Shown one piece after another: positions 18,242 to 46,645 of a stretch of DNA of 64,000 bases (positions are counted from its first letter, which is position 1; every line of letters begins with the position of its first letter). The notes beneath the pieces are model-generated. The model had not been told where the DNA came from. It did no database searches and worked only from the letters and a program-made list of their open reading frames with translations. Position numbers and translations under genes: made by a program. Source of the stretch: Escherichia coli. GTDB taxonomy: Bacteria > Pseudomonadota > Gammaproteobacteria > Enterobacterales > Enterobacteriaceae. Location: NCBI RefSeq assembly GCF_044324875.1, contig NZ_CP172185.1; one strand, written 5' to 3'.

Positions 18242-18365
18242 TCAATGATCGGAAGCATGCCAAATCGTGATCGATTGTGATGCCAAACTGTGATCGGAGA
18301 TGGATGCCAAATCATGATCGATTCGAATGCCAAACTGCGATCGATTCAGATGCCATTTTGCACTA
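18242..18365. repeat. Five tandem ~23-bp direct repeats (ATGCCAAAYYRTGATCGRWKNNN), terminal repeats of the IS21-family element
   Basis: Seen directly; inverted versions lie at the other IS end. Confidence 0.6.
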
Positions 18366-20227
18366 AGCCCTTCGCTTGGCTCGCCAGGGTGCTGGATGTT
18401 AATAAACAGCGTCCGGTTATCCGGAGTGAACGCGATGCCGGTGATTTCGCAGCCGCGCGGGCCGGTCAGGAAGCGGCGGAACTCATTGGTACCGGGAATC
18501 GTCGCCACCATCTGGTTGTTGCCCATGCCTTTGTAATCTTTAATATTTATGGTTGATGACGACACGTCGGTCTGGATCCATAGCACGCCGCGGTGATCGA
18601 AGCTCAGGCCATCGGCGCTGCCGAATTCCGCACCCTTCATGCTGCCTTTGGTTTCCGGTTTGTCTGTATCGGTGCGACCGCCCATCACAAGAATATCCCA
18701 GGCAAACTGCAGCGCGGTCGGGTCACCGTTATGCTCCAGCCAGTGAATGATGTGGCCGTAAACGTTTTTGGCGCGCGGGTTGGCCGCATCCACTGGCGCT
18801 TTTCCTTCCTTACCGCGATCGCTGTTGTTGGTGAGCGTGCAGTAAACGCTGCCGGCGTGATATGGATCGACCGCAATCCACTCCGGGCGGTCCATTTTAG
18901 TGGCCCCCACGGCGTCTGCCGCCAGACGGGTTTTAATCAACAGGTCGCCCTGGTTTTCAAACCCTTTACTGGCGTCGAGCCCATTTTGTCCGAACACCAG
19001 CGGTAGCCACTCGCCTTTGCCGTCGTCGTTAAATTTCGCCACGTACAGAGTGCCTTTTTCCAGCAGGTGCATGTTGGCTTTGCGATCCTGCGGGTTGAAT
19101 TTTCCTTCCGAGACAAATTTATATATGTATTCGAATTTCTGGTCATCGCCCATATAGACCACAACGCGGTTATCCGGGGCAATTGTCACCGCTGCGCCTT
19201 CGTGTTTGATGCGACCAAGCGCGGTGTGCTTGCGCGGCACTGAATGCGGATCGTATGGATCGATTTCCACCACCCAGCCGAAGCGGTTCGGCTCGTTCGG
19301 CGTGGCGTCGACGCTGAACCTTTTATCCACTTCGTTCCAGCGGTAAGAGTCGTCGCTCCCGCTGATACCGTAACGTTTTTCCAGCGGGTTCATCTCTGCT
19401 TTTTTTACGAAAATATCGGACCAGTTCTCTTCACACGTCAGATAGGTGCCCCACGGCGTAAATCCGTTGGCACAGTTCTGCATGGTGCCGAGAATGATTT
19501 CGCCTTTCGGATCGTCAACTGTTTGCATCAGTGGGTTATGCAGCGCCGGACCGGTGATTTTCATCGGCGTGTTAACGGTGATGCGGCGTGCGAACGATGA
19601 CGGGCGCACCACTTCCCAGCCCAGGGGCACTTTTTTTACTTCAATGACCGACACGCCCATCGCGTTCTGGCCTTTAAGAGCTTTATCGGCGCTCCAGTTG
19701 GCATCGCCATCTTTAAACAGTAGACCGTTATCGATGTATTCATGGTTTATGGCAAGCAGGCCGTGATCGGAGCTGTTCCCGCCCTGCGGCAGGCTAAACC
19801 ACGCCATGCCGTCGTGGTGCATCCCGGCCTGCGCCGCCTGTTCTTCCGTGGTGTTGCTACCGTCGGTTTTAAAAACCGGCAGATTTCCGGCAATCCCGGT
19901 GGCGTCGCCCCATTTGTAGAAGGGCTTCGCGATGTATCCTTCCGGCACGATAACGGTATCTTCCGTGGAAACCGGCAGGCTGGTGAAACCGAGCGTCGTC
20001 GCTTTGCCGAGGTTACCGCTTGCTTTGGAGACCACTTTCGCCAGCGCGTTTTCCTGTTTCAGCAGAAATGGGAACGCTGCCGCGGCACCGGCGACCGTGC
20101 CTGCCTGTAACAGACGGCGGCGTGACAAATAGACTTCCGCCACCTGCGAAAACGCGCGGTTATCGCTCGGGTTACTGATTTCTTCACTATGCTCACGTTT
20201 GAATAAAGTTTTTAACGGTCTGCCCAT
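18242..20227 (-). pseudogene. PhoX-type (DUF839) Tat-signal phosphatase, C-terminus replaced by the IS21-family end
   Basis: Twin-arginine motif LSRRRLLQAG; beta-propeller phosphatase-like body; the last ~40 codons of the ORF are encoded by the IS terminal repeats. Confidence 0.55.
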
Positions 20228-22354: not shown

Positions 22355-22562
22355 AAATCTCCATCCAGGTTGCGTAAGAGCCACTTTTCATCCGTCGTCG
22401 ATATCTGGGATAGCCATAGTGAAATAAAAAGCTGTCTGAATTAAATTATTTTGCACATATATTTTAATCCTGCACTGAATTAAGAATGGGTAATCAGTGA
22501 CCGCTTGGACGGTCACTTTTAAGAGAAGGCATTAACAGAGAATGGTAAACAGGCTCAATATA

Positions 22563-23014
22563 TTATGTTGTTGGCACTACAGATGAATGATGGGATGATA
22601 TTTTCCAATCCTTTCCATCCCACTCATAAGCGAAACTATAGCGTGCTGAAACTTGTTTTTTATCTTCAAAAGTAAACGTGTAATTCCCTGTATCAAGAGC
22701 CATATTGCATCCAATGCGAATAGTTCTGAAGTTTATTTCTCCAACAGGTTTTTTTTTCAAAAAATGCTCAAAATAGTCAACTCTTTCTGCATCTGTAATC
22801 CTAATTTTTTTTGATACTGTGGGCAGTAAGATCGCATCACTTAAATAGTTATCAGCAACCTTCTTGGCATCACCTGTTTTTAATGATTCATTCCAGCGAT
22901 CGAATAACCTTTCAATGTCTTTACTATCTACCCGAATACACTTAACATTATCTACGTCACTTGCCCACGACGCTCCAGAAAACAGACACAGAATTAAAAT
23001 ATTTATTTTTTCAT
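22563..23014 (-). pseudogene. NTF2-like (DUF4440/SnoaL-like) secreted protein, frame broken in an A6 tract directly after the ATG
   Basis: AGGAGG-4nt-ATG at 23014; ATG AAA AAA TAA as written; one extra A gives MKKINILILCLFSGASWA signal peptide plus a ~130 aa NTF2-like domain ending ...WKISSHHSS. Confidence 0.5.
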
Positions 23015-23245
23015 AACTCCTCCTGATCAGCCTGAAACTTTTTTAAAGTTTAATCATATTAATACAGTGCAACTATTTGATAGTAAAAACGATGTTCTCT
23101 ATTTTGTTAATAGATACTTCCTATTGTGTATATATTATGAGATTATTAAGAATAATACTCTCTGGGTCGTAGAGACAGGGTATAAGTCACAGGCTGGTGT
23201 GGTTCGGATGTTCTTGCCCCCTCAATATCAGACTGCTATTGTATC

Positions 23246-23611
23246 TTAAGTTAACGTTATCCGCTGACGTCGATATTCCCGTGGTGAGAGATAACCTAAC
23301 GCACTATGCGGATGGTTTTCATTGTAATGCTCGAACGCCTCTGCAAGGTTATGCAATGCCGTTATTACATTCGGTTTCGGTATGAACGCAATGTAGTCTT
23401 CCTTCATCGTTTTCACTAACCTTTCTGCCATTCTATTGCTCTGAGGGCTACTGACTGCCGTCGTGCAGGGCTCCAGATTCAACTCTCTGGCGAATTGCCG
23501 TGTTTCATGAGCCGTATAAGCCGAACCGTTATCCGTCCGCCACTGGATTGCTCGTTCCGGTCCTTTATCGCCAAAGCGTTTTTCTATCGCTCCTAACATC
23601 ACATCCTGCAC
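23246..23611 (-). pseudogene. IS3-family (IS2-like) OrfB C-terminal fragment
   Basis: ...[18 protein letters not shown]...[14 protein letters not shown] motif. Confidence 0.55.
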
Positions 23612-24375
23612 TGTCGGCTTTATCGTAACCTCCCGTACTGGTCACGGGCAGACTGTTCATCATGTTAAACCCAGCCGCTGTCAGATCATGCACCGGCCGG
23701 ATGGCGGGCTGACCTGCCCCGCCGCGCTGCTGCCCGCCAATCCATTTCTTACCTTCCTTCCCGGTGGCCTGACGTCCGGCCTCGTCCCCTTTCACCGCAT
23801 CACCGTCACCGCTGTTCACCACCTTCTTGTACTCTTCCAGCATCGCTGGCCTGCGTCCATTTGCTGCGATCAGAAAAGTCCATCATCCGTTTTGCCATGT
23901 TCTGGCAGTTCAGTTACGCCTTGTCGAAAGCCACATTCGCCTGCAGCACACCGTTGGTGATCATGTCGTACAGGCCGGGGTTGGCACGCTGTATCACCAT
24001 CGCCGGCAGACTGGCAGCGGCGCCGGTCGCCCCCTGAATCACATCCCCCATCAGATTTTTAAAGCCGTCGGTCAATCCGTTAAGATGATTACCCACCGTG
24101 GTCTTCAGGTCAAAGTTGCCGCACATCAGATCGCTGCTCCAGCCCAGGTCCATACCCAGCTTCTGCATGTTGCTGCGCGTGGCCAACTGTGAGATCACCG
24201 AGCCGCCACCCAGCGTATAGAACAGTTTGTCGGATACGGCGCCATCCACGGATTTCCCGTAACCGAACGTGCTGTCATTCAGTTTCGGCAGGGAAAGAAG
24301 ATCAGCCATCGCCGGAATACTGCAGTACAGCATCACACTCAGTGCCACCATACCTGTTTTCATCTTCATCATCAT
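23565..24375 (-). pseudogene. Conjugative-transfer (ICE-type T4SS) TraH-like protein, truncated/frameshifted
   Basis: Signal peptide plus conserved body in ORF 23914..24375; C-terminal part in another frame (ORF 23565..23843); family call from memory, weak. Confidence 0.35.
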
Positions 24376-24381
24376 GGTTCC

Positions 24382-24780
24382 TTAAAAATTCGTACTGCCA
24401 AGGAATCGCTGCCCGCGCTTTTCGAAGCAGCTGTAAGGCTGCCACAGTGCAAAGGCTGCATTACCGTTCTCCGCCGCCTGGTGTTCACCATCCGGGAAAA
24501 CGGCACAGGAACGCGACACTGACGGCGTCAGTCGCTGCCATTTGTGATTGCGGGTGCCGGTGTTTTCCTCCACCGCCTCCGGGGGCCAGTAGCCGTCACG
24601 TTTCACGCCCTTAACCTCCCTGTAGACATGCGACTCCCCCATCCGCGTGATAATGTCGGCCACCCGCTGAGCCCCCACCGCCGCGGCCCGGTCATCATCG
24701 CTCTGCATCACAAAACCACTCCGGTGATAAACGCTCCCCCACATGTTTTTATCGGCCTAGCTGCCAATCTCGCGTTTGCC
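24382..24780 (-). pseudogene. ICE-associated protein with in-frame amber codon near the 5' end
   Basis: ORF 24382..24744 extends upstream in frame across a TAG at about 24758. Confidence 0.3.
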
Positions 24781-24825
24781 GGGAACCTGTGCCTCTGGAT
24801 ACAGGGATTCAGGTAATCCCGTTCG

Positions 24826-25356
24826 CTAGACGATGCTGTCCAGGGTACTGAGGAAATAGGCCATGGCCGGTGTCACCGGTGAATCACAGCTGAATCCGGG
24901 TACCATCCCGCCGATAAGCTGTGTGGCCGGATGACCCAGCGCATCTGCGTATTTGAAACGAATTGCTGAACGGCGCTTCCCCTGTATTTTCATATCCGCC
25001 GGATTTCCCCCGCCGGCACTCAGCCCGGACAGGCCGTCAGTGATGGCATTCTCCGGGCCACCTGCGGTCCGGCTGACCAGCGACATCTCTTTCCAGGGAT
25101 TACCACCCGGTGCCGTATAGGTGGAAATAACCACTTCCGGGATGAAATGTGTCACCTTCACGGAAATTCTGACCGTACAGCCAGACGCGCTGCAGTAAAG
25201 CCAGTAACAAATCCCGCTGACACGCCAGCTGATATAGTCCGGTGCCGCAGTACTGGCGATAATGCTGGCGGTGTTCAGTGATACAGACGCCAGGGGCAGT
25301 GATGCCACACTCAGTAACAGCACGCCGGTACGCAGACTACATTTCAGGGACATCAT
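24826..25356 (-). CDS. Conjugative-transfer TraU-like protein
   Basis: 176 aa; signal peptide; Cys-rich motif GICYWLYCSASGC; weak family call. Confidence 0.35.
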   Translation of the reverse strand: MMSLKCSLRTGVLLLSVASLPLASVSLNTASIIASTAAPDYISWRVSGICYWLYCSASGCTVRISVKVTHFIPEVVISTYTAPGGNPWKEMSLVSRTAGGPENAITDGLSGLSAGGGNPADMKIQGKRRSAIRFKYADALGHPATQLIGGMVPGFSCDSPVTPAMAYFLSTLDSIV

Positions 25357-25748
25357 GGCTGCACTCCTCCCTCAGCACGGATTTTCCCGGCCATCACCAC
25401 ATCCATAGTGCCGTAAACCACCTCACTGTCATCAAACACCACGGCAGGGTATTTCTTCACGCCCAGCGACTAGGCATGTGCCACATCGCGGTAATGACCG
25501 GCCAGTTCCGCCTGCATCGTCTGCCATTCGGGAGACTTCATACGTACCCTGACCACCGATTCAGCCTCACCCGCATCAGCAGGCAACAGGCCCCAAAAGC
25601 GGCTCTGAAGCTGCTCAGGCGCATCCAGCAGAACCACCCTGACACCATCAGGAGGATTAACGGGAAGATGCTGAGAATCGGTATAAATTGTTGTGCCGGC
25701 AGACGCTGCCAGCGGCAGGAAAAACAGGGAACAGAAAATCCGGTACAT
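25330..25748 (-). pseudogene. ICE-associated periplasmic protein with in-frame amber codon
   Basis: ORF 25470..25748 continues in frame after a TAG (...RDVAHA*SLGVKKYPAVVFDD...). Confidence 0.4.
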
Positions 25749-25943
25749 CGTACACCTCAGTCAGATATTATCTGACTGACAGCGTGCGAAGAAAGCGCTC
25801 ATTTATCAGCAATAAATTAAAAACGGGATTAAAAAATTACGGTGGGATCCGGGGAAGTGTATCTGCCAAGCATAACAGACAGTCTGTGATTATACCCGGC
25901 CTTTCACAAAGCCGGGGAACTGATTCATACCAAGTGGTGATTT

Positions 25944-26195
25944 TCAACAATAAGTATAATGAGGTTGTCCCGGCACCGGTGGCAGTGGTTCGAGATAGAC
26001 GTCATCAACAAAAACACAGGGGAATTTTTCAACTGCACATCCAGCACGCTCAGACATTACCTTCAGACTGATACCATGTTTCTCAGCATCAATAAAGAGG
26101 ACATCTGCCCCTGTTTCATCCCGGAGATTTGTCGCATGATGCATGATCCGGTGTACTGAAGGACATGTTTTGTAACCAAAAACACATATACGCAT
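25944..26195 (-). CDS. Small glutaredoxin/thioredoxin-fold-like protein
   Basis: Internal start MRICVFGYKTCP...; weak. Confidence 0.3.
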   Translation of the reverse strand: MRICVFGYKTCPSVHRIMHHATNLRDETGADVLFIDAEKHGISLKVMSERAGCAVEKFPCVFVDDVYLEPLPPVPGQPHYTYC

Positions 26196-26681
26196 GTTGC
26201 ACCTCCTGATCACTGGTTGACGCCGATAATAAAACAATAATGTGAGCGTAAAAAATGCACCTCATACCACATTTCTGTAAAAGGCTCTGGCTATCACTGC
26301 AAAAAGCAAAATCTTAATTCCAGCATCACTTGTTACTCTCATTCCGTCACTTATATTTACCCACATGGCGATGTATTTAATTACTGCCCATAAGAATAAA
26401 AGCCGCTGGCGGATTATTTCTTTATTACCCGGATGCGGTCACAAGCCCACACATCGTCAACTACCTGCCGGTAATATTAACTGTCAGAAGAACGCATACA
26501 TCCGGATGTTTACAGAGTCGCGCGCCTGGTCACAGGTGACAACAGAAGTATGCCATACTAAAGGAGTAAACGGCGGGTCACTGGTGATCAAACACCTGCA
26601 TCGTGTGTTGCTGCCACTGCCCTCAGGTGACAGAGGCAGCATCTTTACGTATTATAATGCGTTATATCGGGTTTGTTGTTA

Positions 26682-29366: not shown

Positions 29367-30030
29367 TACATTATGATACATTCCCTCTGAAATATATTTC
29401 TACTTTGAGCGCCTCTGACTTTATGAGGCGCTTTGTCCAGCAAACCAAACATACTCGCTGGAAACAGAGTAAAGTATTATTATCCCCGATACATCTATAT
29501 TTTACAACAGCGCATCCATATATTAATTAACGATGCAGTTAAGTTCCCCATTCTACCCAATTTACTGTTTTTGTTGTTTGAAAGAAGACTCTCATTAAGT
29601 GAGAGCCATCTGTAAGTATCCCGCATAATCGCTCCATTCATATTTAGAGATCATCCGGAATAATCAATCTGATAACGAAGAAAATCGCTATGCGTAAAGC
29701 CCGTATTACTGAGTATTAGATCATCGCTGTAATTAAATCGGTTGAAACCGGACGAACAATTAAAGATGTTTGTCGGGAAGCCGGTATTTCTGAAGCCACT
29801 TACTACATCTATTGACTACCTCAGTTTTGCAAGCACTGATTCTGGTTTTGGATTGTTGCTTACATCTATCCGGCATCAGGAAAACCTGTGCCCAAATAGG
29901 GAATCCACACACAATCGCCTCTACAACTGGACGACCTCTGAGGCCAGTACAAAAATCAGGTTCCGATTGTGCAGGTGCAACCCGTCACCATTTCTCAGTA
30001 CGCTGCAACTTTTGCTGAAAGAGATTAACT

Positions 30031-44691: not shown

Positions 44692-46645
<1,954 letters not shown>

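Follow-up and report, generated by a model that had tools for sequence, protein, structure and literature searches.

A one-base loss behind the start codon probably silences an accessory NTF2-like protein gene in a strain of Escherichia coli

A strong ribosome-binding site and an ATG start codon that lead, after only two lysine codons, into a stop codon raise the question of why a gene so well equipped for translation should end at once. The run of adenines between start and stop could be a genetic switch, the site of an ordinary mutation or an error of the assembly, or the gene could be read in spite of it. The locus that poses this question lies on the minus strand of a 64,000-nucleotide stretch of E. 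coli DNA (contig NZ_CP172185.1 of assembly GCF_044324875.1), which is referred to here as the window. The start site comprises the following features:

23019–23024, minus strand: Shine-Dalgarno sequence AGGAGG, read directly, followed by the 4-nt spacer AGTT and then the ATG
23012–23014, minus strand: ATG start codon of the SgcJ/EcaC-family (NTF2-like) gene, corresponding to the annotated start of WP_029400372.1 in strain ECCNB12-2
23006–23011, minus strand: homopolymer of six A's (A6), where the intact allele has seven (A7) and where the −1 frameshift arises, from alignment with three other strains and tract counts at 30+ loci
23003–23005, minus strand: premature TAA, codon 4 of the A6 allele by translation, leaving the product M-K-K
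22563–23006, minus strand: open frame for residues 4–150 and the stop codon (22563–22565), −1 relative to the ATG, by translation

Read along the minus strand, the order is AGGAGG, four nucleotides, ATG, six A's and TAA, and the description in the earlier note (AGGAGG and an ATG followed by six A's, giving ATG AAA AAA TAA) was accurate in every detail. Its claim that the length of the tract turns the gene off also holds, six A's encoding M-K-K and a stop. The −1 frame then runs open from INILILCLFSGASWASDVDNVKC to VVPTT, as far as the TAA at 22565–22563; this remaining frame is free of premature stops, and the deletion in the start tract is its sole indel. Adding one A to the tract yields a 150-aa protein with exactly the sequence of WP_029400372.1, a protein that most E. 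coli carriers have annotated as intact. In a four-way alignment, the gene is identical throughout except for homopolymer indels, and the alignment bears out the proposal of a clean, single slippage event in a gene that is otherwise unchanged. The AGGAGG is the same in every aligned E. coli allele, the one exception at the site being a G-to-A change in the spacer of two strains. Runs of six are commonplace in the window (29 of A6 and 33 of T6), and an A6 run alone would carry little weight; this one is meaningful because the repaired reading frame is that of WP_029400372.1.

The gene is an uncommon one, being present in 51 of 5,426 complete E. coli genomes, and it has the intact length in 44 of these 51 carriers. 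Seven A's were counted in 48 of the 49 complete genomes whose start tract could be read, which agrees with the earlier suggestion that seven is the intact state; the sole A6 among the 49 belongs to LH50-c. The exact intact protein was found on at least 999 public contigs. A search pattern tolerant of tract length matched three metagenome contigs, all of them A7, a sample too small for an estimate of frequency, and it had no match on the contigs of the GTDB species representatives. Across the loci inspected, A6 was seen in the window, in the draft L012 (GCA_025283415.1) and in LH50-c, and A8 in the drafts L010, L011 and L013; the majority, including ECCNB12-2 with its annotated WP_029400372.1, have A7. 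Among the draft assemblies with A8 are GCA_020091965.1 and GCA_018565005.1. Judged from these comparisons, A7 is ancestral and functional, and the window's allele is derived from it by the loss of one A.

Frameshifts at the start tract have also left a trace in protein annotation. A 147-aa protein (P0123, beginning MNILIL) is the product that annotators call from an ATA start when the start tract is frameshifted; it occurs on 11 contigs, six of them with A8, one with A6 and four beginning inside the tract. The drafts whose contigs start inside it are GCA_032553055.1, GCA_026907085.1, GCA_018568025.1 and GCA_018043845.1. Because frameshifted alleles are often entered as pseudogenes that have no protein entry of their own, counts of variants obtained from protein look-ups are lower bounds. 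The same gene is annotated as 'frameshifted' in LH50-c, PK8276 and 23CRST013. Haplotypes bearing A8 are separated by as many as 12 mismatches over 3,980 nt, and those of the A6 alleles are not the same either. The occurrence of both A6 and A8 on different haplotypes indicates that the start site is a recurrent and, in principle, reversible mutational hot spot. Several short contigs, drawn from different draft assemblies, begin close to the tract: L014, L015 and L016 at a position equivalent to ~23008 of the window, L017 at ~23010, L026 and L027 at ~22991 and L012 at ~23036. Such starts in the tract or within ~20 nt of it could reflect either repeated insertion of IS elements or forks of the assembly graph caused by heterogeneous reads.

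The protein that the A6 allele would fail to produce can be placed in a family, and two further features describe it:

22569–22928, minus strand: NTF2-like domain (CaMKII-association-domain-like, SnoaL_3, DUF4440; TIGR02246), residues 30–149, from profile and PDB matches
22962–23014, minus strand: region coding for the putative signal peptide MKKINILILCLFSGASWA, with a predicted cut after SWA, broken by the frameshift, from translation and family alignment

The repaired 150-aa protein matches the Pfam profiles CaMKII_AD (E = 5e-13; 49.7 bits against a cutoff of 22.1), SnoaL_3 (E = 1e-7; 32.5 bits, cutoff 22) and DUF4440 (E = 2e-5; 25.2 bits, cutoff 25.2). Its score of 42.8 bits for NCBIfam TIGR02246 'SgcJ/EcaC family' (E = 4.6e-11) exceeds the curated cutoff of 33.95 and places it within that family. 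It also matches PDB 3h51_A at E = 1.1e-30, residues 30–149 aligning to residues 18–142 of the chain. The N-terminus divides into MKK, INILILCLFSGA and SWA-S, a pattern visible in the alignment: a basic n-region, then a hydrophobic core and, ahead of a conserved Cys, a small-X-Ala end recur in 24 of 24 aligned family members. From this pattern, the protein is probably exported by the Sec pathway to the periplasm, with a putative signal-peptide cleavage site after SWA. The earlier identification of a secreted NTF2-like product is supported, by the profile matches and PDB 3h51 for the fold and by sequence pattern for the signal peptide. A cytoplasmic protein made from another in-frame start was considered and rejected, there being no ATG, GTG or TTG before residue 86.

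The family is widespread in Enterobacterales, with 323 matches at E<1e-10; among the 120 matches listed, all bear signal peptides and 70 start with MKK. The E. coli protein keeps all 53 positions that are invariant in 24 family members, including two Cys and an HHSS motif. It shares with the SgcJ/EcaC family, and with PDB 3h51 ('putative CaMKII association domain'), both a fold-level match and every invariant position, but it departs from the family consensus at several nearly invariant positions, and its gene is the most AT-rich of the family copies examined (35% GC against 39–55%). The family also carries the name 'oxidoreductase'; we know of no tested function behind this label. The GC content of 35% compares with 48.9% for the window and 39–55% in eight homologues from other genera, and the E. 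coli copy has extra Lys residues (in SKKI and DKKQ) at positions for which the family consensus is Asn, Ser or Thr. Such an AT-rich and Lys-rich composition suggests a foreign, AT-rich history for the gene.

The surroundings of the gene are in poor repair. The window consists of the chromosomal region from xthA to ynjA with an island of IS and integrative-element remnants that carries PhoX and iha, and almost all neighbours of the gene are pseudogenes. The region directly upstream is described by one feature:

23025–23245, minus strand: AT-rich intergenic region, the presumed promoter region, between a fragment of an IS3-family integrase and the gene; a frequent target of IS1 in other strains

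A scan for promoter consensus sequences found no promoter-like site on the strand of the gene (minus) at the scan threshold, and a terminator consensus scan called none at the gene. Some 45 nt past the stop codon, at 22496–22517 (minus strand), there is a perfect 9-bp hairpin (GUGACCGUC-CAAG-CGGUCAC-like) that lacks a U-tail; in its context, it is not significantly more stable than shuffled sequences (z = −1.3). On the upstream side, ~23246–26300 is a decayed remnant of an integrative conjugative element, with TIGR03756 and TIGR03757 genes that contain internal stops and with fragments of TraU and DUF1525, and fragments of an IS3-family integrase and transposase also flank the gene; the annotation of loci L001 and L006 was used alongside the window here. 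The nearest intact gene is PhoX (18242–20227), and iha lies a few kilobases beyond it in relatives. Further away, the island at 30000–55000 (compared with locus L033) is a mosaic of IS3, IS110, IS21, IS66 and IS630 fragments; it further contains an extra copy of amiC, sodC, a group II intron whose frame is broken by an internal stop, and an IbrB-like gene together with a PAPS-reductase gene.

Where the gene itself is intact, it has no intact neighbour for several kilobases. Since the intact allele is the majority and keeps the 53 invariant positions, some selection for function is likely, and the pattern points to some purifying selection on the gene rather than pure neutral decay.

The start tract is not the only adenine run in the gene, and the two others offer an internal comparison:

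22805–22812, minus strand: internal run of eight A's (Ser-Lys-Lys-Ile), of normal length; no length variant in any locus examined
22749–22757, minus strand: internal run of nine A's (Leu-Lys-Lys-Lys-Pro), of normal length; the site of the gene most frequently frameshifted in other strains

The run of eight is confined to the E. coli lineage, in which SKKI stands in place of the consensus SNKV. A shortening of the run of nine to eight was found on 90 or more contigs (193 index blocks), spread over at least three upstream haplotypes, and gives a 93-aa product (P0122); the loci examined for this change were L002, L004 and L018–L025, and the complete genomes PK8276 and 23CRST013 carry it. Variants of the start tract, by comparison, were found on 11 contigs. 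From these counts, mutability appears to follow the length of a run and not its position. The rate of indels in E. coli is reported to depend exponentially on run length (PMC8510543), and the fact that frameshifts are commonest at the longest run agrees with this dependence. Runs of nine A's or T's are prone to slippage and are selected against in many bacterial genomes (PMC1088944).

Frameshifts are joined by insertions. IS1 interrupts the gene near codon 66 in SMS-3-5 (L005, 2048–2576); it lies ~200 nt upstream of the gene in 23CRST013 (L004, 154–851) and within an 851-nt region in LH10-b-1 (H1). In NRZ14408, IS1414 replaces the 3' end of the gene (L006, 27562–29292), which results in a 157-aa variant (P0124), and two further proteins (P0126 and P0127) are N-terminal fusions of the gene product with foreign (IS) sequence. 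On the alleles compared, the gene is lost sporadically by several independent routes, with frameshifts commonest at the longest run. The earlier note had set the lesion apart from random decay; this part of its reading sits poorly with the several unrelated lesions that inactivate the gene sporadically in other strains, as under relaxed selection.

The explanation that the earlier note placed first, slipped-strand phase variation, would make the gene a contingency locus that is reversibly on with A7 and off with A6 or A8, at a high frequency and with mixed populations maintained under selection. The position of the tract at codons 2–4 suits such a role, and a change of one unit does switch expression cleanly, A7 being in frame and both A6 and A8 leading to a stop within a few codons; however, seven is short for an A/T tract in E. 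coli, which is proficient in mismatch repair. Length polymorphism is likewise present among related strains, with A6, A7 and A8 alleles on different island haplotypes, but its frequency is low: a single complete genome in 49 differs, that genome (LH50-c) is a suspect assembly, and the run of nine in the same gene is hit far more often than the start tract. That the tract lesion is the only change in the window's copy would fit a switch as well, although IS insertions also cause irreversible loss of the gene. Breaks inside the tract in four independent draft contigs are what heterogeneous reads would cause, but they are explained more simply by IS insertions, which are frequent in the AT-rich region. 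The probable export of the product fits the scheme, yet NTF2-like proteins are, to our knowledge, neither a class typical of contingency loci nor known to phase-vary. For Neisseria, in-silico criteria for phase-variable candidates are a run of six or more together with length polymorphism between strains, and the locus falls within them (PMC5084427).

It also speaks against a switch that the tract shows no sign of having been kept for its length. Of the 16 Lys codons in the gene, 12 are AAA and 4 AAG, and when synonymous codons were shuffled within the gene, the start tract reached A7 or more in 55% of trials (P = 0.55) and three or more runs of at least seven arose in 19%. The runs are KK and KKK motifs written in AAA codons in a gene of 35% GC. 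Among eight homologues that start with MKK and were compared at the DNA level, two have ATG AAA AAA AT, and in six the run is interrupted by AAG (AAG AAA in three, AAA AAG in three). The tract is thus neither kept beyond codon usage nor conserved in orthologues. The earlier note had named an invariant tract and homologues lacking the run as signs against its proposal; the homologues do mostly lack the homopolymer, which speaks against a switch, but A6, A7 and A8 all exist and the length is not invariant. The locus resembles the simple-sequence-repeat (SSR) contingency loci of Neisseria, Haemophilus and Campylobacter (poly-G/C or poly-A/T) in having a 5' tract, an open reading frame for an exported protein and length polymorphism in both directions. 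It differs from them in the shortness of its tract (seven A/T), in a host proficient in mismatch repair, in a tract explained by codon usage and in the rarity of variants. Phase variation as an evolved property of this gene is therefore unsupported by these comparisons, and we regard it as unlikely.

Should the strain truly have A7, the A6 of the window would be a sequencing or assembly error in which the consensus lost one A, the other possibility raised in the earlier note. Consensus errors classically sit at homopolymers, the exact allele of the window occurs in no complete RefSeq E. coli genome, and the comparison was made on consensus sequences, in which a single isolated error at the start tract is possible. 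Against NRZ14408 (~26 kb aligned), however, the window has only two 1-bp indels, the start tract and 23407, the latter outside any homopolymer and within an IS remnant, and against SCU-115 (26.7 kb, 20 mismatches) it has only one, at 45402, again not in a homopolymer. The start tract is therefore the window's only homopolymer indel over ~53 kb compared with close relatives. Longer runs of the window, including the eight and nine A's of the gene itself, are at reference length, and a process that miscounts seven should fail at eight and nine first.

LH50-c, the lone complete A6 genome, shows a different picture, with four one-base homopolymer indels in ~30 kb (A7 to A6, CC to C, T6 to T7 and G5 to G4); this noisy-looking assembly lends weight to the idea of error, and LH50-c was down-weighted as independent support for A6. 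The same A6 was nevertheless found independently in the short-contig draft L012, and the opposite change, A8, in at least three other drafts. Taken together, the clean ~53 kb and the recurrence in L012 make an error rather improbable, and on the consensus assemblies compared the A6 looks real. Two other positions in these alignments may be recorded here. At 45402, a T of SCU-115 is missing in both the window and LH50-c; because the IS100 istB of SCU-115 is annotated as frameshifted, the window's istB is probably intact at this point. At 45587, the window has G5, LH50-c has G4 and SCU-115 has G7 (via a T-to-G change).

The internal run of nine bears on a wider version of the switch hypothesis. 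Transcriptional slippage occurs on A9/T9 runs in Thermus dnaX, Shigella mxiE and IS elements (PMC1088944); the internal run of the gene has the same length, whereas its start tract of 6–7 A's is too short and its homologues are coded in a single frame. By analogy with those sites, the allele shortened to A8 might be partly rescued by slippage of RNA polymerase, and slippage on the A9 allele might in turn produce some truncated protein. If the exported protein were toggled by both poly-A tracts (A7 at codons 2–4 and A9 in mid-gene), with −1 and +1 alleles recurring and slippage of RNA polymerase at A9 perhaps softening the off state, it would represent a rare SSR contingency locus in E. coli, a reading that we hold to be highly doubtful.

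Expression of the A6 allele by recoding was also weighed, and it can take three forms: a −1 slip of tRNA-Lys on A AAA AAA, insertion of an A by RNA polymerase, or initiation at the in-frame AUA. At shifty-stop sites, a stop codon in the A site favours frameshifting, and in the A6 allele the Lys codon in the P site would re-pair perfectly one base back. Single-frame coding in nearly all E. coli carriers and in 8 of 8 homologue genes compared, however, argues that there is no conserved recoding signal, and the two-frame layout conserved in orthologues that marks programmed frameshifting was not found. Six A's are also well under the ~9 nt linked to efficient transcriptional slippage (PMC1088944). 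The AUA overlaps the stop codon and is the very start from which the NCBI annotation calls the 147-aa protein on its 11 contigs, but it lies 12 nt from the Shine-Dalgarno sequence, faces competition from the perfect ATG 8 nt ahead of it, and its product would carry a signal peptide without a basic n-region. Initiation at AUA in E. coli reaches 0.02–3% of the level at AUG (bioRxiv 10.1101/063800). The remaining frame has no in-frame ATG, GTG or TTG ahead of the TTG at 22760, and the 65-aa residual reading frame that begins there is absent from the protein collection. Useful expression by any of these routes is thus very improbable, and the A6 allele would be effectively off, with a residual leak of 3% or less.

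We consider it probable, then, that the A6 of the window is real and recent, a null allele produced by −1 replication slippage in an accessory gene for an exported NTF2-like protein. The ancestral ATG AAA AAA ATA (Met-Lys-Lys-Ile) would have presented a run of seven A's, from which one A would have been lost by slipped-strand mispairing during replication; the event appears recent because the gene is otherwise unchanged. Ribosomes recruited by the strong Shine-Dalgarno sequence and ATG would now terminate after three codons, leaving the remainder of the gene in the −1 frame with no usable start. This loss would be one of several sporadic routes by which the gene fails, alongside gains and losses of one base at A7, the loss of one base at A9, and insertions of IS1 and IS1414. 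The tract itself would simply follow from the Lys-Lys codons of an AT-rich gene and be a mutational hot spot with an ordinary, low rate of switching and not an evolved switch.

The closest likeness of such an allele is to the homopolymer frameshift pseudogenes of enterobacterial accessory genes that NCBI PGAP flags as 'frameshifted'. As in these, one base is lost from a short run in a gene that is otherwise intact, most relatives keep the gene intact, and the gene lies in a horizontally acquired, IS-rich island. Nothing essential differs from them, except that the position of the lesion in codons 2–4 leaves almost no peptide. The finding is ordinary in kind and of a kind already known, its sister alleles carrying a public 'frameshifted' annotation.

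In summary, the A6 allele amounts to a strain-specific knockout of an accessory gene, which matters little as it stands. The fitting annotation for the locus is a frameshifted pseudogene of WP_029400372.1, and not the 147-aa ATA-start protein that stands on 11 public contigs. Runs of A6, A7, A8 and A9 within 453 nt, represented across more than 1,000 sequenced isolates, could be used to relate slippage to run length in wild E. coli. Should switching at the start tract prove to be fast, the gene would become an unusual repeat-mediated, phase-variable locus in E. coli.
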